Source of the DNA: a virus
Strand: one strand, 5' to 3'
DNA: 64,000 nt
Virus record (IMG/VR): IMGVR_UViG_3300045988_174371
Coordinates: 128,001 to 192,000 of that record
Position 1 is the stretch's first letter, and each line of letters opens with the position of its first letter. The translations under genes and the position numbers were made by a program. Positions 18,041 through 32,429 of the stretch are shown here, piece after piece. The notes under the pieces are model-generated. The model saw only the letters and a program-made list of their open reading frames with translations, ran no database searches and had not been told where the DNA came from.

Positions 18041-18388
18041 TTAGAGGTTCTTAGTCAGCTCCTTACCAAGCTTGATGGTGTCGATAATCAGCTTTTCGTT
18101 ATCGAATACATACTTGAGTTGCCAGGGCGAAATCTCGAAGCCGTACTCAGTATGGGGGCGCAAAGTGTCGGAAAGAAGCGCTTGCACCTGGTAACCCTTA
18201 TAGGTGTTGTATGCCTTGAGTCGGATTGCCAGCGGCTTGTTCGGGTCGTTGATGTACTCAGCCTTAGCGGGCATGATGGGTTCTTTCACCTTTGCCTGGT
18301 AAGCGTCGGACTCCATGAAGGAGTTAATCTCCTTGAGGTACTGCTGAAGCTTTGCAACTGCTTCGTCGTAGTTCTTGTTGAAGTCCAT
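18041..18388 (-). CDS. small helical protein (115 aa)
   Basis: Trimmed to the ATG at 18388 behind CCGAAAGG. Confidence 0.65.
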   Translation of the reverse strand: MDFNKNYDEAVAKLQQYLKEINSFMESDAYQAKVKEPIMPAKAEYINDPNKPLAIRLKAYNTYKGYQVQALLSDTLRPHTEYGFEISPWQLKYVFDNEKLIIDTIKLGKELTKNL

Positions 18389-18421
18389 GATGGCAACCTT
18401 TCGGTCTAGGGAGAAACGGTC

Positions 18422-18457
18422 TGTAGCTTTTCTCTGGAAGCTCTCTTCCTCGCTACA
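18422..18457 (-). promoter_or_regulatory. 5' leader stem-loop
   Basis: Outer stem TGTAGC/GCTACA, inner GGAAG-AGAG-CTTCC. Confidence 0.5.
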
Positions 18458-18462
18458 TTTAT

Positions 18463-18492
18463 AGTCTAACACATATTTCAGACCGTCTGCAA
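18463..18492 (-). promoter_or_regulatory. cassette-family promoter
   Basis: TTGCAG, 18 nt, (TGTGT)TAGACT. Confidence 0.6.
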
Positions 18493-18776
18493 ATCGAATA
18501 TGGGTGAAGTACATCACATCCCATCAATGCACCCCACCCACACCTCATGACAGTAAAGGGCAAGAGCGCTACCCTAGCGCTCGCAAACCTATACAGCAAG
18601 GTAAGCAACCAGTAGTCACTGTAAGCCAGCGGCTCGCTACGGCAACTAACCTGCGGATAGCAAGCGCCCGCCATGCCGCCCAATAACCATTCCTGCACAC
18701 ATAAGCAAAGCGGGCGGGCAATCAGTGGAACACTCCATCTGATTACCCGCCCGGCTATTACCAAGCGCGTTACATG

Positions 18777-19163
18777 CTACATCCCAAAGTCGAAAGGCAT
18801 ACTGAGGGCAAACTCATACGTAGCCGTACCATTAAATACCTCAGGGGCACCAATAGGCTTATCACCCATTGCTCGAACAATTGCATCACTGATGCACAGA
18901 GCCACCTGACGCACAGCAGGGGAGTACAGAACGAACTCCACAGAAGGCTTAACGTCACCCTCCACCTGCACACCCTCGCCATCATCAACAGCGGGTGACT
19001 CTTCAATGGAGAACTTTACAACCCAGCTACCATACTCATTCGGAGCTTCAACCTGTTCTACCTGAACATCCTTAACGCTGAACTTGCTACCCTTCCAGAA
19101 GTTGCTAGACTCAGCGGGAAGGTCAGTAACAGACTTGAACTTGTGCCAAGAGGTGAGAAACAT
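18777..19163 (-). CDS. small acidic protein (128 aa)
   Basis: Trimmed to the ATG at 19163 behind AAGGAG. Confidence 0.6.
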   Translation of the reverse strand: MFLTSWHKFKSVTDLPAESSNFWKGSKFSVKDVQVEQVEAPNEYGSWVVKFSIEESPAVDDGEGVQVEGDVKPSVEFVLYSPAVRQVALCISDAIVRAMGDKPIGAPEVFNGTATYEFALSMPFDFGM

Positions 19164-19219
19164 GAAAAGCTCCTTAGGTGAACAAGCGGGCGATAGTACC
19201 CAAAAACGATTACACGTAT

Positions 19220-19249
19220 AGTCTAGCACATATTTCAGACCGTATGCAA
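19220..19249 (-). promoter_or_regulatory. cassette-family promoter
   Basis: TTGCAT, 18 nt, (TGTGC)TAGACT. Confidence 0.6.
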
Positions 19250-19500
19250 GTCGAATAGGGGTGAGGTGGGACACACTCGTATTCTATCCGCACATGGCGC
19301 TCGCATATAGCCGCCGCACACACGCGCTCACATGTCCCTCACCAGCAACCGGAAGCACCTCAATAAGCCACCCCTTAGCTCACGCGATAGTAGCCGCCGC
19401 GCAGGTAAGCCACCCTACACTCCAGCCATTGCGCATATTGCACAGCTGGACATAAAAGAGAGGGGGTAGAGGCTTGTGACACCCCTACCCCTCAATGGGA

Positions 19501-19902
19501 TTACTTGCCGAACTGTTCGTTATCGGCTTCAATGTCCTTACGACACTCTTCCAGTCGTCGCGTCAGACTATCGCTCTTATCGACAGTGTGCAAGGCGAAA
19601 GCGAACTCCTTTGCGCTAACGTCAGCGGCACGCATCTCATTAAGCAGATGCAGAGCATACACACGAGCACTCATCGCCTCAGAAGCAAGAACATGCAGGT
19701 ATGCAACGCGGTCAGCCTTACGGTCATTGCGGGCAAACACAATCGGCTCTACCGGCTCATACGACTCAGCAAGAAACAGCTTAACCTGAGAGTCGAGGTC
19801 AGCCTCAGCCGCCAGCTCATCAGCAAGGGCGCGAGCCTCACGCTCAACAGTGGCGAAAGTATTCAGAACTTCCTCTGCACGTTCCATAAGTTCACGAAGC
19901 AT
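19501..19902 (-). CDS. helical protein, paralogue of 15603..15995 (133 aa)
   Basis: Trimmed to the ATG at 19902 behind CCGAAAGG. Confidence 0.65.
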   Translation of the reverse strand: MLRELMERAEEVLNTFATVEREARALADELAAEADLDSQVKLFLAESYEPVEPIVFARNDRKADRVAYLHVLASEAMSARVYALHLLNEMRAADVSAKEFAFALHTVDKSDSLTRRLEECRKDIEADNEQFGK

Positions 19903-19935
19903 TGCAGGCAACCTTTCGGTAGTAAGTAAATGGTC

Positions 19936-19968
19936 TGTAGCTCTTCCAGAGGCTCCCCTCTCGCTACA
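19936..19968 (-). promoter_or_regulatory. 5' leader stem-loop (covarying inner stem)
   Basis: Outer stem TGTAGC/GCTACA. Inner stem AGAGG/CCTCT replaces GGAAG/CTTCC. Confidence 0.5.
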
Positions 19969-19973
19969 CTTAT

Positions 19974-20003
19974 AGTCTATCACAGATTTTAAATGCCATA
20001 TAA
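19974..20003 (-). promoter_or_regulatory. cassette-family promoter
   Basis: TTATAT, 18 nt, (TGTGA)TAGACT. Confidence 0.5.
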
Positions 20004-20228
20004 GCTGAATATGTGTGAGGTGAGACACATGGCGGCTAATCAGTTGCCCGCCAGGTGGCACTCACCCAATCAAGAGTAAGAAGAACGCAAGCATCACTAC
20101 CAGCATACCCAGTAGCAACCACCCCAGAATTAGCGCTCGCAAACCACCCACTAAACAGCCACAGCCAGCCCAGCGAACAGCACCCACAGACACACACTCA
20201 CAGGTCACATAGAGACACAAGGTAGACA

Positions 20229-20280
20229 GCTAAAGCCGCAAAGCAACCCCCTGCATGAGGGCTACCCTACGGCTTTAGCT
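20229..20280 (-). terminator. hairpin terminator of 20295..20693
   Basis: agctaaagccg pairs with cggctttagct, with an inner stem. Confidence 0.5.
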
Positions 20281-20294
20281 CAGAGCACTTCACT

Positions 20295-20693
20295 CTAGAC
20301 AGTAGCGAACGTCACGGTCTGCTTAAAGACTGGAACCCCGCCCTCAAACTCCACAAGAGCCTGACCCTGCGCTACGCGGTTACGCATCACGACCTTAAAC
20401 TCATCCACCATACGGCGCATAAGAACCTCACTCAGAGCAACATCACCCTCAACATCGACACTCATGGTCACACGACCAATCAGCCAACCATCATCACCAG
20501 GCTCCTTAGTCGAGTCAGTTGCCACCACCCCGTAAGTAACATGAGCCTCTTCACCTGAATCCCAGGAGACAAACTCAAGGCTCATCTTAGAAGAAGCCCA
20601 AGCCTCAATGTCGCCCATGTGGGCGGTACTGGTAGCGGTAAAGGGAAGGTTAGTGTAAGTGTAGGGCTTCATCACCTTAACAGTGCAGGACAT
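20295..20693 (-). CDS. hypothetical protein (132 aa), G/V-enriched
   Basis: Trimmed to the ATG at 20693 behind GAGGAG. It lies in the A/C-rich (plus-strand) zone. Confidence 0.55.
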   Translation of the reverse strand: MSCTVKVMKPYTYTNLPFTATSTAHMGDIEAWASSKMSLEFVSWDSGEEAHVTYGVVATDSTKEPGDDGWLIGRVTMSVDVEGDVALSEVLMRRMVDEFKVVMRNRVAQGQALVEFEGGVPVFKQTVTFATV

Positions 20694-20761
20694 TGTGCAA
20701 CTCCTCAAATCCTCAAACATGCGTATTAGCTTTGCGGGGAACATCCCCGATTGAACAATTT

Positions 20762-20791
20762 AATTATACCACAGATTCAGACAGGGGCGCA
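20762..20791 (-). promoter_or_regulatory. cassette-family promoter
   Basis: TTGCGC, 18 nt, (TGTGG)TATAAT. Confidence 0.6.
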
Positions 20792-21010
20792 AGCTATAGT
20801 GTGTGGCTTGCCCCAACAGAAACAAAAGATGGGCATGGGCGCCCTTCAAGCACTCACACCCATCACCACATTTAGCGAAGCAACCAACAAGCAACCACCA
20901 CTAAGACATAGCCACCCAAGAGAGCGCTCGCCATCAACTACAAGAGGAGTCACCCAAACCTAGTAGCCGGAGGCTCCCATACGCTACCCCATAGGCGGCA
21001 AACCTCACCC

Positions 21011-22090
21011 CTAGATAGTGAACCCCAGCTCACGATAGAAGCCCACCAACTGCTCACGCAACCACCGAACATACCCGACACTCTTCTCAATATCGAACAG
21101 CAGGTCAGCAGTAGCCGCCATCAGCACACCACGACACCTAGCATAATCATCAGCCCAACAGTAACGGTTACCATCAAGTTCCTCACGAGCAGGCAGGCAC
21201 TCAGGCTTACCCTCACCAGCACAGAACATGTCAAGGAAAATCTCTTGCAACGCATCAGGAAGAGAAACACCCTCATACTTGCTCGACTCAAGGTAAGAGT
21301 CAATATCCTCAAAAGAGCTAACAGGTAGAAGCTTCACAGTATCCGCATCAATCCAAAGGTCATCGTCACCAACCATAACCCGCAGATAAACACAGCCCCT
21401 GTCAGTATCATAAATAAGCCCCTCACGGTCACTCACACCACCAGAGCCACCATAAAGAACAACCCCAGTCTTATGCTTATTATCAACAACCTTAAAATAG
21501 CCATGCCCCTCATATTTACGCTGGAACTGATAGATACCACCAACTACAAGCTTAACACCAGCCCACTTGCGGTACTCACGGTACTCGTCCAAATCAGGCT
21601 CAACCCAAGACCTGTCCTGATACTTCAACCAGCCCGCGTAAAAATCCTCAAAAGCCCGCAGACACTCCATACGCTTACCCTCAACCCACGCGCTCGCCTC
21701 AACCAAAGAAGCCTCAACCTCACCCAGCCACCTAACAACAGCATCAACAGGCTCACGGTCAGTTAGTGACAACGCACCCACGCCCTTTGGGTAAGCAAAC
21801 CTACTCAAAGCCCTAGCACTATCACCCGGCGAAAACACAGCCGCACTCAAACGCTTTAGGCGACTCTCACGGTTAAACCACACCAACGCCTCAGCGTCAG
21901 ACGCATCAACCCCCAAGGGAACAACACCAGCCGAAACAGGGACACCCACACGTACCTCACCATCACCAGCAACACCAGACACAGCGAAAGACTCACCCTC
22001 ACGCGAACGCTCCACAATAACCGACTCCACATGCAGAACACCCACAGCGGTAGACACAACATCACCAGGAGAAACAGACACAACAGACAT
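21011..22090 (-). CDS. mosaic-family protein, skew-zone member (359 aa)
   Basis: Same length as 13233..14312. Shared blocks: WFNRESRLK, AWVEGKRMECLRAFED, GGIYQF, VKLLPVSSFEDIDSYL. The rest is strongly G/V/A/S-enriched. Confidence 0.7.
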   Translation of the reverse strand: MSVVSVSPGDVVSTAVGVLHVESVIVERSREGESFAVSGVAGDGEVRVGVPVSAGVVPLGVDASDAEALVWFNRESRLKRLSAAVFSPGDSARALSRFAYPKGVGALSLTDREPVDAVVRWLGEVEASLVEASAWVEGKRMECLRAFEDFYAGWLKYQDRSWVEPDLDEYREYRKWAGVKLVVGGIYQFQRKYEGHGYFKVVDNKHKTGVVLYGGSGGVSDREGLIYDTDRGCVYLRVMVGDDDLWIDADTVKLLPVSSFEDIDSYLESSKYEGVSLPDALQEIFLDMFCAGEGKPECLPAREELDGNRYCWADDYARCRGVLMAATADLLFDIEKSVGYVRWLREQLVGFYRELGFTI

Positions 22091-22289
22091 AACGAAAAAC
22101 CTCTTTCAAAAACTCAACAAGACAAGCAGGCAGAACACCCACCCACAGAACACAGAACGCAGGGCGCTCGCACAGACATAAGGCGCTCACCAAAGCAAGC
22201 ACCCACCCACCTAAGCAAGCAGACAGGTAGGAAAAAGGAAGGACGGAAACCCCTAATAGGAACCCGCCACTCCCGCAAGACACCACTAA

Positions 22290-22424
22290 CTAACCAAACA
22301 CGCGCTCACGCGCATAAGATACCACCTCTTCCACAGCGTTCAAAATCTCCAGAGCCAGCGCCTCATCATCCTTAGCAACAACCTCAGCCCAATCAGAGGC
22401 AAAAGAAGACGCAAGGTCACGCAA
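22290..22424 (-). CDS. possible small ORF (44 aa, TTG start)
   Basis: Hand translation gives MRDLASSFASDWAEVVAKDDEALALEILNAVEEVVSYARERVFG. It abuts the stop of 22426..22635 and is below the track cutoff. Confidence 0.3.
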   Translation of the reverse strand: MRDLASSFASDWAEVVAKDDEALALEILNAVEEVVSYARERVFG

Positions 22425-22425
22425 C

Positions 22426-22635
22426 TCAGCCTATCGCCCTAGACAAGTCATACACCTTCTTGTCCAGCGCGATAGGCTGAGCGGACGTAGCGCTCGCATC
22501 AAACGCCGCCAAATCCAAAACAGCCGCCTTCACGAAACTACCAGTGCCAAACAAGGCACCAACCTCAGACAAAGAATATACCAACAAAGCGTAAGTGTTC
22601 TTAGCCTTAACCTGAGTCTCAACACTAAAAGCCAT
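22426..22635 (-). CDS. small protein (69 aa)
   Basis: Trimmed to the ATG at 22635 behind GGAGGG. Confidence 0.5.
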   Translation of the reverse strand: MAFSVETQVKAKNTYALLVYSLSEVGALFGTGSFVKAAVLDLAAFDASATSAQPIALDKKVYDLSRAIG

Positions 22636-22711
22636 AACTAACAATCCCTCCAAAGGAACAAAATAAGAAACGACAGCAGGTAACGATTACCCACCAGATG
22701 ATTACCCTATA

Positions 22712-22741
22712 ACTATACCACAGAAAACAGGTGGTGTACAG
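22712..22741 (-). promoter_or_regulatory. cassette-family promoter (weak -35)
   Basis: TTTCTGTGG-TATAGT. Confidence 0.45.
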
Positions 22742-22935
22742 ACCGTCCACCAATACCACACCAGAAACAGAGACCCACGCCCCAACAACAGGGACACATA
22801 GACGAATAGACGATAGGAATAACAACCACACCCCATGAACCATCCACAGAAGGCAACTCACCACCCCCACACCCGACCATCAACCCACCAAAACGCGCTC
22901 GCACCCACACCACAACCCCAAAAACAACCCCTAGA

Positions 22936-22950
22936 GGTTGATTTTCAACC
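22936..22950. repeat. palindrome GGTTGA-TTT-TCAACC (copy 1)
   Basis: Perfect 6-bp arms. It is a G/T-containing island in otherwise A/C-only sequence. Confidence 0.8.
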
Positions 22951-23182
22951 CCTAAAAACAGAAACTTGCACCAAAGTGCATAACGCACTGACAAGGACAA
23001 ACATTGCCTTCCCCCACATACCGAAACACCCCGAAACCCACCCCACACCAAACACACCCCGCACCACCCCCAAAAACCCCGAAAAACAGCCATATGCACC
23101 CCGCACCAGCCCACCCAGGCACCCAAAACGCCGACACAGACCCCAAAACAGCACTAAACCCACCCCAAAAACAACCCCTAGA

Positions 23183-23197
23183 GGTTGATTTTCAACC
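23183..23197. repeat. palindrome GGTTGA-TTT-TCAACC (copy 2)
   Basis: Identical to copy 1, 247 bp downstream. Confidence 0.8.
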
Positions 23198-23305
23198 CAC
23201 AAACAGCCACCCACCCCGAAAAACACAAAACGCACCGACAAGGGCAAACATTACCCTCCCCCACATACCCAAACACCCCGAAACCCACCCCGCACCAAAC
23301 ACACC

Positions 23306-23346
23306 GAAAAGAAAACGAAAAAAGGAGAGCGGAAAAGAAAAAAGAA
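23306..23346 (+). other. polypurine tract (39 of 41 nt purine)
   Basis: gaaaagaaaacgaaaaaaggagagcggaaaagaaaaaagaa. Confidence 0.8.
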
Positions 23347-23399
23347 CACCCCACCGCGTGAGCAACGTGACCCGCACCACACCCGGCACCCCGCCCACC

Positions 23400-23575
23400 A
23401 CCTCGCCGCCTACCACTACCCATCCCTACACTTACCACCTCTAGCCCTACTGCCCTACTACTACCCGTATCCCCGTGCATCATTATGTTACCCGTCTAGT
23501 TAGTTAGTGTCCCTACCGTCCCTCTAGCTTGTTGGTGTATCTAGCCTTATCCCTTTGCCTTTACCTTTATTGCTT
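23400..23575. other. pyrimidine-rich switch tract with CCCTAC x4 and CTAG x4
   Basis: CCCTAC at 23424, 23445, 23453 and 23511. CTAG at 23441, 23496, 23524 and 23541. Composition changes A/C, then C/T, then G/T. Confidence 0.75.
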
Positions 23576-24129
23576 GGTGTGTGGTTCCCCTTGTTTCTAG
23601 CTTGTGTGTCTCTTATGGTGGTGTGTCTGTGTGTTGTCTCTGTTGTGCCTCTCTCTTTCTCTCTGTATGTGGTCTGTTGGTTACTGCGTTCTTCTGTCTT
23701 GGGTGTGTGTGTTCCTGGTGTCTTTCTTCTATGTGTGTCTCTGCGTGTGCCGTGTATGTCTTATGTGTCTTGTTTGTCTGTGTTGGTTGGTATTGTTGCC
23801 CTGGGTGTCTGTGTCTGCTTTCTTTGCTGGGTGTGTTCCTGGTGTTTAGCTTGTTGGTGGTCTGTGTGTCTCTTGTGTCTGTGTCTTAGGTCTGTGTTAG
23901 TGTGTTTTGTTTTTCTTCTTTTCTGTTTTTCTTTTGTGTTGTTGTGTGTGAGCCCAGGTTCTGTGTGTGGTTCTGGGTTTGTGGCGGTTTGTTTTTGGGG
24001 GTTTGCTTGGGTGGGCTGGGGTTTGGGGTTGTTGGTTTTTGGGTTTGGGGTGGGGGTTTTGTTTTGTGGGGTGGTTGTTGGTGGTGTTGTTTTTTTGGGG
24101 GTGTTCTGGGTGGGTGGTGGTTTGTGGGC

Positions 24130-24135
24130 TATACT
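24130..24135 (+). promoter_or_regulatory. possible -10 (TATACT) for the Gly/Val-rich ORF
   Basis: The only four A residues in 24061-24213 are at 24131, 24133 and 24139 (in or beside TATACT) and at 24171 (in GGAG). Confidence 0.35.
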
Positions 24136-24179
24136 GTTATTGTTGTTCTTGTTGTTGTTTTTCTGTTTGGAGTGTGGTT

Positions 24180-25889
24180 TTGGTGGTTGTTGGGCGTGGT
24201 GTTGTTGTTGGTGAGGGTGTTTCTTTTTCGTCTTCTGGTGTTGGGGGGTTGTTGTCTTCTGGTGTGTCTGGGTCGGTGTGTGGTGTTTGGGTTCCTGGTG
24301 GTGTTGGTGTTGATGTGGTGTCTTCTGGTGTGTTTGCGGGTTTGTTGGGTGCTGGTGGTGTGGGTGCTTCTTCTTTGGGGGGTGGGGTTGGTGTGTCTGT
24401 TGGTTGGGGTTCTGGTTCGGGGTTTGTGGATGGTGGGGGTTTTGGGTCTGTTGGTGTTGGTGGTGGGTTTGTTGAGGGGTTTTGGGGTTCTGGTTCGGGG
24501 TTTGTGGAGCCTTCACCTGTGGGTGCGGGTGTTGGTGGTGTGCCTGTGGCGGAGGGTGTGCCTTCTTTGGGGTCTGACGGGGCTTCTGCGGGGGTTTTAG
24601 ATGTTTCTGGTATGGTTTTGCCTTCTTCTGGTTTTGGTGGCTCTGAGGGGCGTTTTGGGGTTGTGGGTGGTTCTGGTGTGAGGTTTGGTTCGTCGCCTGG
24701 GTTTGGTGGTTCTTTTGGTGGGGTTGATGGGTTGTTGGGGGTGTTGGGGTGTTCGCCTGTGGGGTTCTTTCCTGTGTCGGGGGTGTGTGGTGTTGGCGGT
24801 GTTGTGGATGGTGGTTGGGTTGGTGGTGTTGATTTTTCGGGGGTTGGTGTGTCTGGGTTTGGGGGTGTTGGGGTTGGGTCTGGTGATTTTGTGGGTGGTT
24901 CTGGTGTGAGTGTTTCTGTGCCGTGGTTGGTGTCTGGTTTGTCGGGGTTGGATGTTTTGGGGTCTGTGGGGTTTGGTGTGTCTGGGTTTGGGGTTGGTGT
25001 GTCTGCCGTGGTTGGTGTGTTTGGTTTGCCGGTGGGGGTTGGTGTGTCTGATGTTGGTGGGTTGGGTGGTTGGTGGGGGTTGTCGTCTGCTGGGTTGGGT
25101 GTTTTGGGTGGTGGGGGTTTTGGGTCTGGTTTGGGGCGTGTTTTGGGGGTTGGCGGTTTGGGTTCTGGTGGTTTTGTGCCTGGTGTTTCGGGGTTGGGTG
25201 ATGGTGGTGGGGTTGTTGGGTCTGGTGTTGGGGCTGTGGTTGATGTGGATGGGTGGTTGTGGCGTTCGCTTGTTTTTGGGGCGGGGTTGGTTCCTGCTGG
25301 GTTTGAGGGTGTTTCTGGGGTTGGTGTTGGTGCTGTTGGTGGTGTGTCTGGTGGTGCTGTTGAGGGTGGCTTGTGTGGTGTGGGTGGTGTTTCTGGTGTT
25401 TTTGGTGGTGGGGCTGTTTATGGTGGGTGTCCTGTTGGGTTGAGGGTTGGTGTTTTGGGTTCTGCTGGGTCTGTGGGTGATGTGGTTGATGGTTTGTCTG
25501 GTGTTGGTGGTGTTTTGGGGTTGAGGGGTGTTTGTCCGGTGTTTGGGCGTGTTGCTGGGTTGGGGTCTGGTGTGTTGTGGGAGTTGTTGCGTGGTGGTTT
25601 GGTTGGTGTTTTGGGTTCTGTTGGTGGGCGTGTTTTGTCTGGTGTGGTTGGTTCGGTGTTGTCTGGGCGTGGTGGTGTTGATGGTGGTTTGGGTTTGGGG
25701 TTTGTGGCTGGTAGTGAGGGGTTTGGTTCGCCGGTGGGTGAGGTTGTTGGTGGTGGTGGTTCTGCTGGGTTGCTTGGTCGTTCTGGTTGGGGTGGTGTTT
25801 GTGGTGGTTGGGTTGATGTGCCGGTTGGTTCGCCGGTGTTGGGGTTGGGTGTTTCGGTGAGTGAGGTGGTGGCTGTTTTGGGTGGGTAG
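24180..25889 (+). CDS. possible Gly/Val/Ser/Leu-rich low-complexity protein (about 569 aa; start uncertain)
   Basis: Frame open for 1.9 kb. It shows codon phase (G-rich position 1, T-rich position 3) and the rare A sits mostly in GAT/GAG codons. GGAG at 24169-24172 lies 7-10 nt before TTG 24180 or GTG 24183. A hairpin follows the stop. Caveat: A-poor DNA is stop-poor in every frame. Confidence 0.4.
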   Translation: MVVVGRGVVVGEGVSFSSSGVGGLLSSGVSGSVCGVWVPGGVGVDVVSSGVFAGLLGAGGVGASSLGGGVGVSVGWGSGSGFVDGGGFGSVGVGGGFVEGFWGSGSGFVEPSPVGAGVGGVPVAEGVPSLGSDGASAGVLDVSGMVLPSSGFGGSEGRFGVVGGSGVRFGSSPGFGGSFGGVDGLLGVLGCSPVGFFPVSGVCGVGGVVDGGWVGGVDFSGVGVSGFGGVGVGSGDFVGGSGVSVSVPWLVSGLSGLDVLGSVGFGVSGFGVGVSAVVGVFGLPVGVGVSDVGGLGGWWGLSSAGLGVLGGGGFGSGLGRVLGVGGLGSGGFVPGVSGLGDGGGVVGSGVGAVVDVDGWLWRSLVFGAGLVPAGFEGVSGVGVGAVGGVSGGAVEGGLCGVGGVSGVFGGGAVYGGCPVGLRVGVLGSAGSVGDVVDGLSGVGGVLGLRGVCPVFGRVAGLGSGVLWELLRGGLVGVLGSVGGRVLSGVVGSVLSGRGGVDGGLGLGFVAGSEGFGSPVGEVVGGGGSAGLLGRSGWGGVCGGWVDVPVGSPVLGLGVSVSEVVAVLGG

Positions 25890-25908
25890 TGTGTTGTGGG
25901 TGGTGTAG

Positions 25909-25963
25909 GAAGAAGGAGCCTCTGGTTTCCCGTGTTTGTGCGGGTTGCCAGGGGCTCCTTCTT
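25909..25963. terminator. bidirectional hairpin between convergent ORFs
   Basis: gaagaaggagcctctgg pairs with ccaggggctccttctt. Confidence 0.55.
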
Positions 25964-25978
25964 GTGTTTGGGGGGGGG

Positions 25979-26803
25979 TTATTCTTCGTAGTCGGGGTGG
26001 TTGGTGATGGTGTTGATGTGGTGGTGGGTTTGGTTGGCTAGGTTGGTGTGTCCTTCTTTGGTTGCGATGTCGTGTACGGTGGTGAGGTAGTCTTTGGTGC
26101 GCCAGAGGATTTCGCTGTCGGATACCCAGTGCATTTCGCCTTCGATTGCGTAGTAGTCGGAGATGTTTTGCCAGAGGGAGGTTAGTTCTTCTTCGAGGGT
26201 TTCTTGGTGTTTGGGGTTGTTTAGGAGGGTGTGGTATTCGGGGTGGGTGAGGGTTTCGTGGAGTGCTAGTGCGGTTTCGGGGGTGAGGGGTGCGGTTTCG
26301 CTTTCGGGGATGTTGAAGGTTTCGGGTAGGGGGTTGGTGTAGGTGAGGGTTGCGTTGAGGACTGCCCAGATGTTGTAGCCGTCTAGGAGGGTGGTGTATT
26401 CGTTGGGTTCGTCGGGGATTGCGCGGGTTGCGTCTCCGTTGAGGGTGTGGGCGATGCTGATGTCGTGGTAGTGTTCGGTGCTGTGCCAGATGGTGATGTC
26501 GCCGTCGTTTTCGATGGCATAGTAGATGGGGGTGGGGGTGTCTTTGCGGGTGCCGATGTTTACGGCTTTGAGCTCTTCGAGGTCGGGGGTGGTGAGTTGT
26601 CCGTTGGTGCGGGTGATGTTGATGGTGTGGGGTGCGTTGAAGCTTGCATGGCGGAGGGTTGCGGTGGCGTGGTTGGTGTCGGTTACCTGGTCGATGGCGT
26701 AGATTGCCATGCGGTCGTCGGTCTCTTCGTTGGTGGGGGTGAAGAGGATTCCGTCGTTGGTGTTGAGGGTTTCCCAGTAGAGGAAGGGGGTGATGGTTCG
26801 CAT
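25979..26803 (-). CDS. hypothetical T/N/H/P/E-rich protein (274 aa)
   Basis: ATG behind GAAAGAGAG. Promoter at 26907-26936. It is encoded on the A/C-rich strand. Confidence 0.6.
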   Translation of the reverse strand: MRTITPFLYWETLNTNDGILFTPTNEETDDRMAIYAIDQVTDTNHATATLRHASFNAPHTINITRTNGQLTTPDLEELKAVNIGTRKDTPTPIYYAIENDGDITIWHSTEHYHDISIAHTLNGDATRAIPDEPNEYTTLLDGYNIWAVLNATLTYTNPLPETFNIPESETAPLTPETALALHETLTHPEYHTLLNNPKHQETLEEELTSLWQNISDYYAIEGEMHWVSDSEILWRTKDYLTTVHDIATKEGHTNLANQTHHHINTITNHPDYEE

Positions 26804-26906
26804 TGTTGGTGCTCTCTTTCTGTGTTTAATGATTGGGGGGTAAGCCTTGTGGGGCTTGTTGGGTTAGGTGGTGGGTTGAGGTTTTCTCTCAACTCCTTAT
26901 GTTTAG

Positions 26907-26936
26907 ATTGTACCACATATTTGTGATGTATGCACC
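26907..26936 (-). promoter_or_regulatory. cassette-family promoter
   Basis: GTGCAT, 17 nt, (TGTGG)TACAAT. Confidence 0.5.
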
Positions 26937-27050
26937 TTATGGGGTGTGTTTTAGCTCTCTCTTCTATAGGGGGGGGTGGGGCTTTGCTTCTGCGGTGGCA
27001 TGGTGTAGTGTTGGTGGTGTTATTTCCTTTTGTTTTTGGAGGTTTTCCTG

Positions 27051-28052
27051 ATGATTTACGATGTTTTTTCGGCGCGACCTGGGTTTAAGTTTTTTGGGGT
27101 TGATGATGTTCTTCGTTTGCGGTCTTTGGGGGTTTCTAAGTCGTGGGATGAGGTGTGGGACGCTAAGTGTGTTGATGTTGCTGTTGAGGTGTTGGGGGTT
27201 GATGAGGGGTTTTGTTATGGGCGGCTTGAGGATGCTTTTGGTGAGGGGCGTGATGACTGGGAGTATGAGTGTGATGTACTGGATGGTTTCACGTTGGCTG
27301 ACCTTGAGGCTGAGGGGTTGCCTGCTGGTGAGGTGATGAGGTTGTGGGAGTCTGGTCGCCTTGTTGGGGATGATTTTGGTGGCGAGTTGAGGTTTACTCG
27401 GGCTCAGTTCTGGGGTGGGGTTGGTGTGTCTGAGCTGGTGGTGCATGAGGAGTTTTTTGAGGTGTTGGGAGTGTTCCGGCGTTTGGGTGTTCCGGCGGCG
27501 GATGCGGGTGTTTTCCTGTTTGAGCCTAGGGATAATTATGGCTTCCTGGCTCCAGCTGAGTTGTTGCTGTCTGGGGTTGATGAGTTGCGTGATTTGGTAG
27601 TTGCGGATGCTCATGGGTGTGCTATTGAGCGTAGGGGTGTTGGTGTTGTTGATGAGTGGGTGCGTGCGTCTGTGGGTACTGTTCCTGCGCCGGGTGTGGT
27701 GGTTGGCTTGGTTGGTAAGGGCGTTGATTTTGGTGCTGTTTTTGGTGGGGGTTTTGGTGAGTTCCCTTATGAGGTGGTAGGTAGGGTTGCTGAGGGTTTG
27801 GGTATTCCGGTGAGTGTGTTGATGTGTCGTGTGAAGGGTATGCGTTATGGGTTGGGTCGTCGTAGGGAGGGTACGGGCGGGCTTATGGATGAGTTGGAGG
27901 GTTTTGGTTGGTCTGATGGCTCGATTGCGGAGTTTTTGAGGGTTCCGTCGCCGTGGTTTGGTGTGGTTCCTCCGTTGGAGTATGCGCGCCTTGGTGATGA
28001 GTATGTGGGTGCTGTTGTGGCGGTTGCGAAGTTTATTGATAGCCGCCGGTAG
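27051..28052 (+). CDS. hypothetical G/V/F/E-rich protein (333 aa)
   Basis: ATG at 27051 lies 8 nt after GGAGG. The C-terminal FLRVPSPWFGVVPPLEYARLGDEYVGAVVAV weakly resembles DUF2384-type antitoxin C-domains. That similarity is not verified. Confidence 0.55.
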   Translation: MIYDVFSARPGFKFFGVDDVLRLRSLGVSKSWDEVWDAKCVDVAVEVLGVDEGFCYGRLEDAFGEGRDDWEYECDVLDGFTLADLEAEGLPAGEVMRLWESGRLVGDDFGGELRFTRAQFWGGVGVSELVVHEEFFEVLGVFRRLGVPAADAGVFLFEPRDNYGFLAPAELLLSGVDELRDLVVADAHGCAIERRGVGVVDEWVRASVGTVPAPGVVVGLVGKGVDFGAVFGGGFGEFPYEVVGRVAEGLGIPVSVLMCRVKGMRYGLGRRREGTGGLMDELEGFGWSDGSIAEFLRVPSPWFGVVPPLEYARLGDEYVGAVVAVAKFIDSRR

Positions 28053-28186
28053 ACGATGGCTATTTGTGGGGCTGGTGTATGGTTCTAGGAGCCGTGCGCC
28101 AGCCTTCCTTTTGTGCTTTATGCGGGTGTGATTAGTCCCCCGGTGTGCCTGCGTGTGCTGGTTGCCGGGGGACTATTTTGGTGGTG

Positions 28187-28849
28187 TTATTGGGTTTTAG
28201 CGGTGTTGATGATTTCTATGTTCGGTTCATTGGTGGTGGCTTTCTGGATGAGTAGGGTGCGGTTGAGGGCTTTGAGGAAGTGTTTGTGTTCTGGTTGGGT
28301 GATGGCTTGTGTGATGGGTGTTTTGTGGTTGGTGGGTGTGATGGTTATTTCGGTGTGTAGGTTGGTTTCTATGGGGTGGGTGATGGTGATGGAGTGGTCG
28401 GATTGGGGGTTGGTGTGAATGTATCCTCTTGTTAGGCTTGTGGGTTTGGTGTTGGGGCTGGTTGCAGGGGTGTGGTAGGTGTTTTCATGGATGGTGGCGG
28501 TCTTGTGGTGTTGTTGGGCGAGGTGGGCTACTGTTTCGAAGTTGGCGTTGGTGTGGTAGCAGGAGAGGGTTAGGGAGTAGGGTGCTCCGTCGAGGTCAAG
28601 GTTTAGGCTCCAATGGCTCATGTCGAATCCGAGTTGGTGGAGCTTATATTTGAGGGTGAGTCCTTTGATGCCCATGCGTTTAAACGCCTGGTTGTTGCGT
28701 TTCTTGAGTGTGGCGGGGTGTTCGATGATGTCGCCGTGTGGGGTGACTGCGAAGGTGTCGGGGGTTAGTTCGAGGGGGTCTCCTATGTTCATGTAGGCTA
28801 CTGCTATTTTGTCGCCCTTTTCTAGTTTGGTGTTGGGGTTGGCGTTCAT
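28187..28849 (-). CDS. hypothetical protein, paralogue of 29643..30350 (220 aa)
   Basis: Shares the R(N)N..(F/L)KR(M/L)GIKGL.LK.KL..LGFDMS.W core with its paralogue. The C-terminal half is T/H/N/P-rich. Confidence 0.6.
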   Translation of the reverse strand: MNANPNTKLEKGDKIAVAYMNIGDPLELTPDTFAVTPHGDIIEHPATLKKRNNQAFKRMGIKGLTLKYKLHQLGFDMSHWSLNLDLDGAPYSLTLSCYHTNANFETVAHLAQQHHKTATIHENTYHTPATSPNTKPTSLTRGYIHTNPQSDHSITITHPIETNLHTEITITPTNHKTPITQAITQPEHKHFLKALNRTLLIQKATTNEPNIEIINTAKTQ

Positions 28850-28908
28850 TTGAGTATTCCTTTCTTAGGGGCTGGTTAGGTGTTTGCCGTTTGGGGTATC
28901 TATGTGTA

Positions 28909-29592
28909 CTAGAAGCAGTCGGAGATGTCGTAGGGGTCTTCCCCTGCCGCGTTTTCCAGGTACACGCCCTGAGAGATTAGTGCCTTTGCCTCTCTAATGT
29001 TTTCGCTATCCTTTCCGAATAGGTGTTCTAGCACGTCTGAGCTGTTGCTAATAATTGTGACTGGCACTGGTTCTAGTAGGCTCTCTGCGCCGTGCCTGCG
29101 GATGAGTGTGGGGAGCTCTTGCCATGAGATGCGGTCGCCGTTGAAGTAGATATGTGGTTCTACGTTCAAGTGTTCAGACCATTCTAGCGTATCGGCGTTA
29201 GGGGTCTTGGTTAGGTGTTTGCTGATTGCATAGCACCTGTTTTCAGTGGGTGCTTCGGTTTGCGTACACCACTGGGTGACGTTCTGGTAGACCTTTTGGT
29301 TCGCGGGGATGCCGTTGATGCGAACCTCTGAGTCTGGGTGTGTAGTGAAGAATGCTATGGGGTGCCATTCGCTATCTGCGGGGGTCTGAATGTGTATCCG
29401 TTTCTGCCACCCATTTTCGGATTGTTCGCAGGCATGGATACGTTCCATTAGCTCCTTGATGGTGAGGGTAGGTTCGGTGGCTTGGGCTACTGCGCGTCGC
29501 CATAGGCGCTGTCTGTAGTCTTTCGGGCGTGGCTTCAGCATGAGGTTGATGAGCGGGTTTGACGGGGTGTATTTGTATTCGGGGTATTGCAT
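28909..29592 (-). CDS. hypothetical protein (227 aa)
   Basis: ATG behind AAGGAGAAA. Confidence 0.6.
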   Translation of the reverse strand: MQYPEYKYTPSNPLINLMLKPRPKDYRQRLWRRAVAQATEPTLTIKELMERIHACEQSENGWQKRIHIQTPADSEWHPIAFFTTHPDSEVRINGIPANQKVYQNVTQWCTQTEAPTENRCYAISKHLTKTPNADTLEWSEHLNVEPHIYFNGDRISWQELPTLIRRHGAESLLEPVPVTIISNSSDVLEHLFGKDSENIREAKALISQGVYLENAAGEDPYDISDCF

Positions 29593-29642
29593 CTGTTTTT
29601 CTCCTTAGCGGCGTGTAGGGCGGGGCGATATGGGTGGGGTAG

Positions 29643-30350
29643 TTATCTTTCGTTGATGATGACCCAGCTGTCTTCGTATGGGGGTTCTGGGTCGGTTATT
29701 TTCTGGATGTTTGCGTGTTCTTTGAGGTTGGCGTTTAGGTCTTTGAGAAACCTTTGGTGGTCTTCCTGTTTGAGGGCTGTTTCGAGGGTTGAGTGTGGTG
29801 CTGTGGGTTTGACGACTATCTCGTTAAACAGGCGTGCTCCAGGGGTAAAGGTGATAGTGAGGGATGGTTCGCCGTGCGTGTGGGTGCGAATCTGGTGTTC
29901 GGTGTGGGTTGAGTTGTTGTATGAGGTGTAGGTGTCCTCATAGATTTCTGGGTTTGTGTAGTGCAGGTGGGCGAGGGTGTCTATGATTCCTGCTGTGGTT
30001 TGGGTCGTGTTGGTGTTGAGAATGAGGGCGCAGGGGTGATTGTCGGTATCGAGTTCGATGCGCCAGCGGCTCATGTCGAACCCTAGTTTGCGGAGTTTAT
30101 GCTTGAGGATGAGCCCTTTGATGCCTAGGCGTTTGAGGATGCGGTTATTGCGCGCATTGATAGAGTTAGGCATGACAGGGTGTAGGGGTTCGTCAATTGC
30201 GGTGCCGTTAGGGGCATAGTGTCGTTTGCCGATGCCGTCGAAATAGTAGTCAATGGGGTGTTTCTTGGCGTATTCTACGGCAGTGCCTTTGACATTTACG
30301 TAGATTACTTTCACAGTCTCTTCAGTGTTGGTGTTTTTACGGGGAATCAT
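29643..30350 (-). CDS. hypothetical protein, paralogue of 28187..28849 (235 aa)
   Basis: ATG behind GGAAAGGAA. Confidence 0.6.
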   Translation of the reverse strand: MIPRKNTNTEETVKVIYVNVKGTAVEYAKKHPIDYYFDGIGKRHYAPNGTAIDEPLHPVMPNSINARNNRILKRLGIKGLILKHKLRKLGFDMSRWRIELDTDNHPCALILNTNTTQTTAGIIDTLAHLHYTNPEIYEDTYTSYNNSTHTEHQIRTHTHGEPSLTITFTPGARLFNEIVVKPTAPHSTLETALKQEDHQRFLKDLNANLKEHANIQKITDPEPPYEDSWVIINER

Positions 30351-30390
30351 GGCGTGGACGGTTCCTTTCCTTGGCGGGCTTGTTGGTTCT

Positions 30391-30420
30391 ATTGTAGCAT
30401 TTAGGTAGGCTTTTGGCGGA
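30391..30420 (-). promoter_or_regulatory. possible extended -10 promoter of the 30350-to-28187 operon
   Basis: Minus strand AAATGC-TACAAT. Confidence 0.4.
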
Positions 30421-30499
30421 GGTTCTGTAGGGGTGTTCTGTGATATTCTTATGGTACTTACTTTCCTTGTATTTCCTGGTTGTTGTGGAGGTTTTTCTA

Positions 30500-32143
30500 G
30501 TGGCTGATAGTTCAGTTGCGGCTGGTGTTGGTCGTGTTGGTCGGTCTGTTGTGGAGGGGTTGGCTCCGGGGGTGTTTTCGGGTTCTGGGTCTATTGGTGA
30601 GCTGGAGGATGCGGGGTTCAGTGTTGGGCATTTGGTAGATGGTTTCGTGTTGGCTTCTGGCGTGCCGGTTGAGGGTGGGTCGGTGTTGGAGCGTGCGCGT
30701 GGTGTGCGTGATTTTTCGCAGGTTCCTGTTGCTTTCAGGTCTTTTGTGGCTGAGTGTGCTGGGTATGTCTGGGATGGTTCGGTTGTTTCTTCTGTTGGTG
30801 GGGTGTTCCTGCATGGTGGGTTTTCGTTTGGTGTGACTCCTCGGGCTAGGTGGTCTTTTGGTGGTGTCTCGGGCGTTGATTTTGAGGCTGTTCAGGAGGG
30901 GTTTGTTGTTCCAGCTTCGGGGGTTGGTGTTGGTGAGCTTGCTTCGGCGGTCGGTGTTGAGCTGGGTGGGTTAGTTGCTCCGCCTGGCAGGTTAGGGCTT
31001 GGTGCTGGTATTGGTGAGTTGTCTTCGTTTAGGTTTGATTATGATGGGCGAGGTTCGCGTATGAGTTCGACTGAGGTTTCTAATGCTTTGGCTTTGGAGC
31101 AGGCTTCTTATTGGCTGTCTCGTGTCGGGGAGGTTGATGTTGTTTCTCCGCCGCTGGTTGGGGAGTCGCCGGATGTTGTTGCTGAGCGTTTGAAGCGTGT
31201 TAGGCGTGCTTCTAAGGGGGAGAATGGTGTTGCTCCGCGCCTGATGGGTTCACGTCGTGAGGTTGAGATTATGGGGTTCATTGGACTATTTGGCTGGGTG
31301 GACGTTCGCGCTGTAATGCTGTTGCTGGGTGTTTCTACTAGAGTTACTGCGTTGAAGTATTTGAAGGGTTTGCAGGGGCGCGGGTGCCTGGATGCAGTGG
31401 ATGTGCCTGGGCTCGGGCATAGGGTTTGGGTTGGTACCCGTGTCGGGTTGGATGAGTTCGGAATTGGCGGCGCTACGGTTTCTCGTAAGACTTTGGGCAA
31501 CAGCGAGTTTAAGCATAGGGTGTTGGTGAACTATGTGGGCGCTATGCTGGTGAACGGTTCGGTTGATGTTTTGGGCTTGGGTGGGCTTGTCTCTGGTGGT
31601 CGTCTGGTTGGCGGGCAGGTTTCGCGTGGCTTTTCTGTTATTCCTGACCGCGTGATTGACAGTGCAATTCAGGGCATGTTTAGAGGGCGTGCTGGGTATG
31701 ATGTGCGTGATGTGCTACTTGCCCGACGTGGTGAGGTGTTGCGCGAGTGGCGTGTTGCTGGTGGCGAAGGTGTTTCGCCTGAATGTTATGGCGGCAATGA
31801 GTGGATGTGGGCTGTTATGAGCGGCGCTTCGGAGGGCAAGTACCATGTGCCAGATATTGTGTGCATGATTCCTCGTGGTGAGAATGGTGAGCCGCGCAGT
31901 GTTGCCGTTGAGGTGGAGCGCGGGTTTGGCAAGAAGCCCGGCAACCTGGAGAAGATTCTGAGCCAGTATAAGGATGATAGGAGCGTTTTTGGGATGGTGG
32001 TGTGGTTGTGCACTGATGACCGTATGGTGATGAGAGTGAATGAGTGGGCGGAGGCGAACGGGTGTGCTGAGCGTATTCGCGCTGTTCGTTTGTGTCGCCC
32101 TGATGGGTCGGTGTTTGAGGGTATCTCGTCGTTTGAGTTTTAG
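30500..32143 (+). CDS. replication-relaxation (Replic_Relax-like) family protein; candidate relaxase/Rep (547 aa)
   Basis: wHTH-like segment EIMGFIGLFGWVDVRAVMLLLGVSTRVTALKYLKGLQGRGCL, FKHRVLVNY, and KYHVPDIV...SVAVEVERG...LEKILSQY. Recognised from memory, not searched. Start moved to GTG 30500, 8 nt after GGAGG. The N-terminal about 200 aa are a G/V/S-rich low-complexity region. Confidence 0.55.
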   Translation: MADSSVAAGVGRVGRSVVEGLAPGVFSGSGSIGELEDAGFSVGHLVDGFVLASGVPVEGGSVLERARGVRDFSQVPVAFRSFVAECAGYVWDGSVVSSVGGVFLHGGFSFGVTPRARWSFGGVSGVDFEAVQEGFVVPASGVGVGELASAVGVELGGLVAPPGRLGLGAGIGELSSFRFDYDGRGSRMSSTEVSNALALEQASYWLSRVGEVDVVSPPLVGESPDVVAERLKRVRRASKGENGVAPRLMGSRREVEIMGFIGLFGWVDVRAVMLLLGVSTRVTALKYLKGLQGRGCLDAVDVPGLGHRVWVGTRVGLDEFGIGGATVSRKTLGNSEFKHRVLVNYVGAMLVNGSVDVLGLGGLVSGGRLVGGQVSRGFSVIPDRVIDSAIQGMFRGRAGYDVRDVLLARRGEVLREWRVAGGEGVSPECYGGNEWMWAVMSGASEGKYHVPDIVCMIPRGENGEPRSVAVEVERGFGKKPGNLEKILSQYKDDRSVFGMVVWLCTDDRMVMRVNEWAEANGCAERIRAVRLCRPDGSVFEGISSFEF

Positions 32144-32158
32144 TGTGTCGAGGTAAAC

Positions 32159-32209
32159 AAAAAAGCGAAGCCCTGAACCATTGATGAAGGTTCAGGGCTT
32201 CGCTTTTTT
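32159..32209. terminator. bidirectional intrinsic terminator with A/T tracts
   Basis: aaaaaagcgaagccctgaacc pairs with ggttcagggcttcgctttttt. Confidence 0.75.
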
Positions 32210-32368
32210 GTTTTGGGTGCAATGCCTCAATGTCCTTAGGGTTTGGCGCTCGAATCCTTACCCATTGGGAGCCTGCCTAGTGGCGCTGGTGAGGTTTTAA
32301 TTGTCTTTGTTGGTATATCAGAGGTTACTGAATTTCAAGGCGGCTTAGAGGGGTGTTTTGGGGCGCGT

Positions 32369-32419
32369 GTAAAGGTGGTATCCATACCAAATTTTGGTTA
32401 GAGTGGATACCACCTTTAC
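32369..32419 (-). terminator. hairpin terminator of 32430..33989
   Basis: gtaaaggtggtatcca pairs with tggataccacctttac. Confidence 0.6.
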
Positions 32420-32429
32420 TTATGAGGTG

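Follow-up and report, generated by a model that had tools for sequence, protein, structure and literature searches.

When one strand of a DNA tract is written almost entirely in two letters, does an open reading frame (ORF) within it still mark a gene, and what emptied the strand of the other two letters? We address these questions for a 64,000-nt stretch of DNA (hereafter, the window), positions 128,001 to 192,000 of IMG/VR virus record IMGVR_UViG_3300045988_174371, which belongs to an element of about 360.6 kb found in human oral metagenomes. The plus strand of the window consists largely of G and T between 23576 and 25963. An initial annotation of this tract proposed either that a Gly/Val/Ser-rich low-complexity protein is encoded there, or that a former gene has been saturated while its frame was kept. 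The reading that we prefer, and consider fairly probable as a whole, is that a functional gene under purifying selection (24180/24183-25889, plus strand; hereafter, the G/T gene) lies within a zone of about 8.7 kb in which a deamination-type pressure would act on a displaced strand. The odd composition is a property of this strand-specific zone, across genes of both orientations, and not of the G/T gene.

A gene in DNA that lacks stop codons

In 23576-25963, A accounts for 2.6% of the bases, C for 9.4%, G for 44.6% and T for 43.4%. A and C together amount to a fraction of 0.121 here, whereas windows of equal size outside 20-33 kb have 0.460 +/- 0.035 (z = -9.7), and the near A-free G/T tract reported in the initial annotation is thus real. 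The openness of a long frame in such a tract proves nothing by itself, because stop codons need A; all six frames are stop-free over hundreds of codons. The plus frames had been described as trivially open, and they are (up to 646 codons from stop to stop), but the minus frames are equally so (759 and 743 codons). It is likewise true that no minus-strand ORF of at least 60 amino acids (aa) exists over 24517-25978, but the cause is that start codons are missing, not that stops are present. The frame originally singled out, 23967-25889 (640 aa), also exists, although its coding part begins at TTG 24180 or GTG 24183 and not at 23967:

24183-25889, plus strand: protein-coding gene of 568 aa from GTG 24183, or 569 aa from TTG 24180, ending with TAG at 25887-25889

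The public gene call for the G/T gene (24183-25889, 568 aa) is identical to the frame inferred here from GTG.

The coding-like phase noticed at the outset is borne out by a Fourier test. Period-3 power over 24183-25886 was 33.7, compared with 0.56 +/- 0.45 (maximum 3.35) in 500 shuffled sequences, a difference of approximately 60-fold. The same test gave shuffle-level values in 22740-23400, 23500-23950 and 23951-24182. The first 216 nt of ORF 23967-25889 are therefore non-coding.

The three codon positions differ markedly in composition (24213-25889). Position 1 has a G fraction of 0.65 and 6.3% A+C, position 2 retains 24% A+C (C 18.6%, A 5.4%), and position 3 is 98.3% G/T, with only 1.7% A+C (A 0.4%, C 1.3%). 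Without selection, all three positions would decay alike, so the approximately 14-fold higher A+C content at position 2 than at position 3 indicates selection on the protein. In the 30 codons from 24600, 17 begin with G and 21 end with T; counts of 16 and 19 had been given previously, and the trend that they illustrated holds. As had also been remarked, the A-bearing codons are chiefly GAT (16) and GAG (11), and the C-bearing codons chiefly TCN (66), GCN (20) and CCN (18).

Comparisons among orthologues are consistent with this picture. Orthologous loci were taken from public assemblies: two are identical to the window (L001 and L003), one is ~95% identical (L005) and two are ~89% identical (L002 and L004). 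Five indels distinguish orthologues within 24160-25889, and their lengths (3, 9, 3, 45 and 21 nt) are all multiples of 3, which is the outcome expected of a gene in the indel-phase test suggested by the initial annotation. Upstream of the gene, indels measure 1, 2, 4, 8, 12, 16, 30 and 31 nt, with four 1-nt indels falling within 23979-24157; just past the stop codon, they measure 1, 1 and 3 or 4 nt. Differences between orthologues number 15-18, 13-21 and 34-39 at codon positions 1, 2 and 3, respectively, of ~569 codons. The ratio of nonsynonymous to synonymous divergence (dN/dS, by the Nei-Gojobori method), also suggested as a test, is 0.22-0.44 in the proposed frame only, compared with 0.75-1.58 in the five other frames. 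On these comparisons, 24180/24183-25889 is very probably a real gene under selection, and the first of the two initial proposals is supported by five independent kinds of evidence, namely periodicity, codon-position composition, indels, dN/dS and homologues.

The second proposal, that this is the relic of a former gene, saturated, nonfunctional and open only since stop codons need A, is highly improbable. Stop codons are indeed trivially absent, with six frames open for hundreds of codons, and the product has no fold, domain or homologue outside its own family. However, a relic would not keep 24% A+C at position 2 and 1.7% at position 3, nor a dN/dS below 0.45 in the gene frame only, nor exclusively frame-preserving indels; moreover, invariant residues, start signals and the terminator are kept across relatives of ~47% identity. 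We regard the relic proposal as already largely refuted. Scarcely credible is the possibility that the minus strand codes (for a Thr/Asn/Pro/His-rich protein) or that the tract is purely non-coding (an origin or a G-quadruplex array): the minus frames are open for 743-759 codons, neighbouring genes on the minus strand are rich in T, N, H and P, and plus-strand position 1, once complemented, is similar to position 3 in the adjacent minus-strand gene, but the most saturated position would then be codon position 1, dN/dS in minus frames is 0.75-0.99, no minus-strand start codon occurs over 24517-25978, protein homology, Shine-Dalgarno sequence and start are all on the plus strand, and strong 3-periodicity contradicts a non-coding tract.

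Several other predicted ORFs in this DNA are artefacts that arise because stop codons are lacking. Public calls for the G/T gene are in some cases over-extended, to 640-774 aa. ORF 23555-24214 (plus; Cys/Val/Leu/Phe-rich) is publicly called as a gene of 199-217 aa, and it has no periodicity and indels that break its frame. ORF 26447-26926 (plus; Gly/Val/Asp-rich) is antisense to a real gene.

The Gly/Val/Ser-rich protein and its family

The G/T-gene product consists of G (35%), V (22%), S (12%), L (8.5%) and F (5%) for the most part, and contains no K, N, Q, H, T or I. It has 28 D+E residues against 12 R, an isoelectric point of 4.1 and a grand average of hydropathy of +0.9. Relative to the expectation from base composition, C and W are ~5- to 8-fold underrepresented and S is ~3-fold overrepresented.

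A search of 5.8 billion proteins retrieved 52 homologues of 470-770 aa, encoded on 250-372 kb contigs from human oral metagenomes. In an alignment of 40 family sequences, identity to the window protein is ~47%, mean column identity is 57%, and 69 columns are invariant, with invariant W, F, P, E, D, S and G positions running from the N-terminus onward. The C-terminus is highly conserved across the family (GLGLGFVxGSEGxGSPVG...VDVPxGSPxxGLGV), and among strains, the C-terminal half is 98-99.7% identical, compared with 90-95% for the N-terminal half. Distant family members are less saturated and contain T, I, N, Q, H and Y.

No Pfam or NCBIfam profile (E <= 0.01 or 0.1) and no PDB profile matched the product, and a profile search of 1.84 billion cluster representatives returned eight proteins, all from the G/T-gene family. 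The family is new and unannotated, and, to judge from these searches, is confined to elements of ~260-370 kb in human oral metagenomes. The product is an acidic, hydrophobic orphan protein of low complexity, and it is probably disordered. Its elastin-like Gly/Val content and conserved aromatic residues invite the speculation, by analogy, that it might self-associate or form condensates. One homologue was automatically named PE_PGRS3 by the Joint Genome Institute (JGI); we rejected this identity, as no Pfam or NCBIfam match indicated an N-terminal PE domain or the mycobacterial GGA/GGN repeat domain, and the likeness is compositional only.

A strand-specific G/T zone and its mirror

The G/T gene is the first of seven genes in a region in which the plus strand is nearly devoid of A and C, and an opposite, weaker region lies to its left:

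23500-32200, not stranded: zone of ~8.7 kb with a plus strand nearly without A and C, defined by four-fold degenerate sites in seven genes of both orientations
18700-23400, not stranded: weaker mirror zone with a G/T-rich minus strand, defined by four-fold degenerate sites and skew

We measured strand bias gene by gene as the fraction of plus-strand G+T at four-fold degenerate sites, with the following results:

18777-20744, minus strand, three genes: 0.31-0.35
21011-22090, minus strand: 0.10
24183-25889, plus strand (the G/T gene): 0.99 (439 sites)
25979-26803, minus strand: 1.00 (128/128)
27030-28052, plus strand: 0.92
28187-28849, minus strand: 0.95
28909-29592, minus strand: 0.76
29643-30350, minus strand: 0.83
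30440-32143, plus strand: 0.84
32430-33989, minus strand: 0.60
most remaining window genes, mostly minus strand: about 0.45-0.75

The minus-strand gene at 25979-26803 is decisive, for it is fully saturated, and the bias must therefore belong to the DNA strand and not to the coding strand. This gene (274 aa) is real, on the evidence of 31 full-length homologues of 65-92% identity and of its codon-position composition. The minus-strand genes 28187-28849 and 29643-30350 are also real; they are paralogues with 39% identity (E = 8e-30), in which no known domain was found. Intergenic spacers inside the zone are 71-78% G+T.

Skew statistics give the same picture. GC skew rises to +0.70 and AT skew falls to -0.90 at 24-26 kb, both remain strong until 32 kb, and their signs are reversed at 20-23 kb; background is reached by ~33 kb rightward and ~17 kb leftward. 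On both sides, the 5'>3' direction of the G/T-rich strand always points away from the switch between the two zones. Within the zone, four-fold G+T declines roughly with distance, from 0.99 to 0.84, and it is 0.60 in the next gene outside.

The layout is kept in relatives whose G-rich proteins are only ~47% identical: minus-strand genes are followed by the switch gap, a G-rich gene, variable small genes, a plus-strand gene of ~540 aa and the T2SSE ATPase gene. At four-fold sites, the G-rich genes of these relatives reach 94-95% G/T. From the G-rich gene to the ~540-aa gene, the intervening genes are completely different in distant relatives, and this comparison indicates that cargo has turned over there.

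Several additional observations concern the margins of the zone. Flanking the switch on its left, at 18041-20061 (minus), are three paralogues that share the N-terminal motif THIRxxxGLKYVLDYxC and have no known domain. At the right, the zone is closed by gene 30440-32143 (plus), whose 567-aa product is specific to the element family. Between this gene and the convergent T2SSE gene is a hairpin at 32160-32215 (AAAAAAGCGAAGCCCTGAACC...GGTTCAGGGCTTCGCTTTTTT), a bidirectional terminator, and a second strong hairpin at 32370-32420 (arms GGTGGTATCCA...TGGATACCACC). For the 567-aa protein, homologues are family-specific and no Pfam domain was found; a Foldseek search with an AlphaFold model (predicted local distance difference test, pLDDT, 39) matched a MarR-like winged helix at about residues 270-340, and by eye, the C-terminus ('HVPD...VAVEVERG..K') could be a PD-(D/E)xK nuclease. 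On this basis, the protein is a candidate for a role in DNA processing, for instance as an initiator or nickase. A firmer assignment as relaxase or initiator was rejected, given that no Pfam domain was found and that the winged-helix match is the only one.

Signals around the G/T gene

The start and end of the G/T gene carry the following features:

23951-24179, plus strand: non-coding, near-pure G/T block with many G-runs, recognized by its lack of 3-periodicity, its 1-nt indels and its conservation
24130-24135, plus strand: TATACT, a possible -10 hexamer (unproven), identical in four strains; L005 differs just downstream
24169-24172, plus strand: Shine-Dalgarno sequence GGAG, invariant in four strains
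25910-25963, plus strand: terminator hairpin between convergent genes, with a 17-bp stem and a 5-bp inner stem, followed by GTGTTTGG

We confirmed that 24061-24213 holds only four A residues (24131, 24133, 24139 and 24171), which lie in or beside TATACT and in GGAG, and that GGAG is spaced 7 nt before TTG 24180 and 10 nt before GTG 24183. Distant relatives of the gene have GGGAAAGGG or GGAAGGA before an ATG start; the window copy starts with GTG or TTG at this place, an A>G change. The hexamer that had been likened to a -10 element is present and plausible in that role, but the promoter is unproven: no -35 match was found, and a promoter scan called no plus-strand promoter.

The block at 23951-24179 contains a G-quadruplex-type motif (23997-24021) and is 94-98% conserved among strains, which is above both its flanks and the variable N-terminal half of the gene. 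Such conservation makes it probable that the block has a function, be it in a leader, in a promoter or in initiation.

The hairpin that had been noticed 3' of the stop codon is real. Folding of the 111 nt at 25880-25990 gave -47 kcal/mol (z = -6.3), and the hairpin constitutes an A/C island inside the G/T tract. Two distant relatives (L011 and L012) have an equivalent hairpin of different sequence past the stop codon of their G/T-gene homologue.

The switch region

The change of strand composition occurs within a short interval, inside a 1.5-kb non-coding gap between divergent genes:

23400-23560, not stranded: strand-composition switch, from A/C-rich through a purine patch, C-rich and C/T-rich sequence to G/T-rich
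22426-22653, minus strand: 75-aa gene, the first to the left of the switch, with promoter-like TGTACA-17-TATAGT at 22740-22712

The gap lies between 22426-22653 (minus) and the G/T gene (plus). Its purine-rich patch at 23300-23349 is free of T (A 31, G 11, C 8 and T 0 per 50 nt). To the right of the switch, A is lost ~400 nt before C. The cumulative GC-skew minimum of the window is at 23-24 kb, and in the distant relatives L011 and L012, a switch is kept ~1 kb upstream of the G-rich gene.

Non-coding DNA around the switch (22430-23930) is hypervariable relative to L002, L004 and L005, with 70-90% identity and many indels, and the neighbouring genes are 97-100% identical among strains. This mosaic divergence along the locus suggests frequent recombination. 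Strain divergence is therefore uninformative about hypermutation, and we discarded that line of argument.

A palindrome, GGTTGATTTTCAACC, occurs in two perfect copies at 22936-22950 and 23183-23197, where ~0.12 would be expected by chance. Both copies sit in a direct repeat of ~247 bp within an A/C-rich non-coding stretch, and on the minus strand, a T-rich run follows each, which makes it terminator-like. One or two copies are kept in related loci. Possible roles of the palindrome are binding of a protein, attenuation or marking where a small RNA ends. Looking for the iterons, DnaA boxes or AT-rich unwinding element of an origin yielded only these two copies, and the DnaB gene is 27 kb away. 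Searches for inverted terminal repeats or true repeats around the switch yielded only low-complexity matches. It is also unlikely that the switch reflects linear ends joined by the assembler, as four independent contigs that begin at different points all have it in their interior.

Origin of the strand bias

Neutral sites in the zone are saturated in a strand-specific manner that is independent of gene orientation, the polarity is mirrored about the switch, and the arrangement has been conserved over the history of the family. Within the zone, A and C persist only where they are functional, at second codon positions and in the Shine-Dalgarno sequence, the -10-like hexamer and hairpins.

Deamination converts A to hypoxanthine, which is read as G, and C to uracil, which is read as T. 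Because the excluded bases, A and C, are the mutagenically deaminable set, and because the G/T strand has the polarity expected of a displaced or leading-sense strand, we favour single-strand deamination, and give a mutational origin of this type somewhat better than even chances. In brief, the strand that runs 5'>3' away from ~23.4-23.5 kb would repeatedly be left single-stranded, displaced as DNA synthesis for replication or transfer, or R-loop-forming transcription, starts at the switch. The exposed strand would then undergo deamination-type A>G and C>T changes, and silent sites would reach saturation in genes of both orientations. Purifying selection would spare A and C where they are needed, namely the second-position C of Ser, Ala and Pro codons, the A of Asp and Glu codons, the Shine-Dalgarno sequence, the -10-like hexamer and the terminator hairpin. 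The loosely constrained G/T-gene protein would drift, further than its neighbours, into the vocabulary of the eight G/T codons. As the source of single strands, we tentatively favour, at less than even chances, a replication or transfer start, in which strand-displacement synthesis from the switch gap would reflect either an IncQ-type origin with an initial uncoupled phase or transfer initiation. Resection in the 5'>3' direction at a double-strand break or at genome ends was rejected as a source, because its strand geometry predicts the opposite polarity.

Several points weigh against this explanation. A neutral-site A+C content of <=1% demands a mutation asymmetry of ~100:1 or more, which is, to our knowledge, well beyond any known for mitochondria or bacterial chromosomes. 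The poorly conserved non-coding DNA at 23500-23950 is still 18% C. No initiator, relaxase, nick site or iterons were recognized in the window, most of whose proteins lack any family match. There is no reversal of gene orientation at the switch, the far genes to either side being minus-strand genes, and the skew is local rather than extending across whole replichores. In relatives, moreover, skew is patchy and not smooth with distance; for example, genes with values of 0.48-0.57 in L012 (14428-15733) lie between others at 0.94 and 0.93, although this fits the view that such unskewed inner genes are recent cargo yet to be worn down. The right end of the zone coincides with the strong bidirectional terminator at ~32160-32215, a boundary that also fits a transcription unit. 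Finally, as regards the gene itself, AlphaFold with the 40-sequence alignment predicted no secondary structure for the product (pLDDT 38.9).

The main rival is selection for a palindrome-free alphabet. According to this idea, the zone would be the DNA that enters a recipient first, for example a conjugative leading region, and its two-letter strand would be selected. G and T alone can form neither palindromes nor Watson-Crick hairpins, so that such DNA would escape nearly all restriction sites and remain unstructured while single-stranded; the G/T gene would be real, with its codons chosen under this constraint. Between 23950 and 25899, there are six 4-bp palindromes compared with ~93 expected, and no 6-bp palindromes compared with ~14 expected; however, such a loss follows automatically from the composition. 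The setting is suggestive, in that genes of a Gram-positive-type type IV secretion system (T4SS) adjoin the zone, and the zone genes are small, of fast turnover and without assigned function, four of seven being readable with the plus strand as template. If the plus strand were the one transferred, the remaining three, including the G/T gene, would be on the wrong strand for early expression (cf. PMC11541004), neither a relaxase nor an oriT was found in the window, and known leading regions of Enterobacterales plasmids are not consistently palindrome-depleted (PMC13478746). Within the allowed alphabet, silent sites follow a codon preference, for T over G in plus-strand genes and for C over A in minus-strand genes, which in both cases means pyrimidine-ending codons; selection at silent sites is therefore effective. 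The centre of the switch also uses other non-self-complementary alphabets, A/G and C/T. Nevertheless, four alphabets would be equally suitable, yet the excluded bases are the deaminable ones, and selection does not predict a symmetric flip of polarity about one point. We consider a selected alphabet unlikely.

Transcription offers another explanation, which we judge distinctly unlikely. Strong divergent transcription from 23.4-24.1 kb would make G-rich RNA that binds the C-rich template tightly in stable R-loops, the non-template strand on each side would be deaminated, and the process would reinforce itself as G accumulates on that strand. Precedents exist in the transcription-associated G+T excess on coding strands and in immunoglobulin switch regions. 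In favour of this mechanism, the first gene on either side has the G/T strand as its sense strand, and G-run or G-quadruplex-type motifs lie to the left and right of the switch, in each case on the G-rich strand. The right zone also stops at the terminator mentioned above, and in each of the three lineages saturation is most uniform among plus-strand genes (0.84-0.99). The real minus-strand genes of the zone, however, are as saturated as the plus-strand genes (1.00 and 0.95). Although a strong terminator hairpin follows the first gene, saturation is 100% in the minus-strand gene beyond it, and the most skewed DNA on the left (22750-23400) is upstream of the only promoter-like site for the leftward genes.

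A more radical version of these ideas, which we regard as quite unlikely, is that a giant oral conjugative element has a programmed system for hypermutation or alphabet reduction at a specific locus, and that the zone is its footprint. Such a system may consist of enzymatic deamination of both A and C on the displaced strand, or of evolved palindrome-free leading DNA that is invisible to restriction. In the open-access literature searched, we found no comparable conserved, local and two-sided zone with 0-1% neutral-site A+C whose genes, in both orientations, are still under purifying selection.

The element

Two independent assemblies of the element, with different start points, measure 360,715 and 360,588 bp, and a 306.9-kb version is entered in IMG/VR as a virus. 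Proteins encoded in the window comprise DnaB, a RecG-like helicase, a ParA-like ATPase and a T2SSE ATPase (4e-32). The window also includes AAA_10 (VirB4-like; 6e-32), an M23 peptidase domain in a 1158-aa protein, a CD3337/EF1877 VirB6-like domain in a 1340-aa protein (4e-9, below the curated cut-off) and a weak PrgI-like match (1.6e-4, below the curated cut-off). Together, these mark the following region:

32430-63585, minus strand: Gram-positive-type conjugation gene set (T2SSE, AAA_10, PrgI-like, CD3337/EF1877 and M23 peptidase)

From this gene content, we regard the element as conjugative and megaplasmid-like, possibly a phage-plasmid. Given its Gram-positive-type conjugation genes, the classification as viral deserves review.

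Near-identical DNA was not found in the phage and plasmid collections searched, GTDB species genomes included no close relative of the element, and tblastn searches with DnaB and AAA_10 gave only 23-28% identity. The window has no tRNA or Rfam matches. The element is not an Inocle, as Inocles have 24-32% GC compared with 52% GC here.

Significance

A protein family that stays under purifying selection with ~99% G/T silent sites and with Gly, Val, Ser, Leu and Phe as its predominant residues makes the G/T gene a natural experiment in reduced codon and amino acid alphabets and in the limits of mutation pressure. The combination of saturation, mirror symmetry and conservation in the family points to an undescribed DNA transaction at a defined locus, be it DNA that persistently stays single-stranded or a two-letter strand kept by selection, and thus bears on the biology of giant oral mobile elements. 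If the hypermutation or alphabet-reduction proposal were true, the locus would be a natural counterpart of laboratory base-editor mutators, or restriction-invisible leading DNA, with a protein kept functional on a vocabulary of almost only eight codons. A practical consequence is that gene callers over-extend or invent ORFs in stop-free DNA, and that composition-based names such as 'PE-PGRS' mislead.

Comparison with known systems

Mycobacterial PE-PGRS proteins and elastin-like and silk-like proteins resemble the G/T-gene product in having very high Gly together with Val, Ser or Ala, a length that varies by in-frame indels and no stable predicted fold. The G/T-gene product differs in lacking a PE domain, a Pfam match and a regular repeat unit, and its composition is largely imposed by the strand bias of the DNA.

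Regions of transcription asymmetry and R-loop switch regions share with the zone a G+T excess on the non-template strand and G-runs, and exposure and G-richness would reinforce each other. In contrast, oppositely transcribed genes of the zone carry the same plus-strand bias, and therefore either dominant read-through or a process other than transcription is needed.

In conjugative leading regions, genes are uniformly oriented, with the transferred strand as template (PMC11541004), and published leading regions are GC-rich (PMC13478746). The zone is similar in lying beside T4SS genes and in its small, variable genes of no assigned function, and single-stranded entry would yield a strand-specific history. 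It differs in its mixed gene orientation; no relaxase, oriT or single-strand promoter was identified in the window, and no leading region has been reported with a two-letter strand.

The established precedents for strand asymmetry are Lobry-type replication skew in bacteria and the heavy-strand gradient of vertebrate mitochondria. Like bacterial replication skew, the GC and AT skews here change sign at one point, and the G/T strand has leading polarity on both sides. However, skew in the zone attains +0.7 (GC) and -0.9 (AT), returns to background within 5-9 kb and does not extend over whole replichores, and the zone has neither a flip of gene orientation nor a recognized initiator or iterons.

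In vertebrate mitochondrial DNA, as in the zone, one strand is G/T-rich, there through C>T and A>G changes while single-stranded during strand-displacement replication; the bias is best seen at four-fold sites, is independent of gene orientation and shapes amino acid content. The single-stranded intermediate is here only inferred, and the zone is far more biased (0-1% A+C at four-fold sites), local (~9 kb plus a ~5-kb mirror in an element of ~360 kb), two-sided and patchy in relatives. Strand compositional asymmetry is thus well known, and the conserved, local and two-sided zone described here is far beyond the asymmetries known to us.

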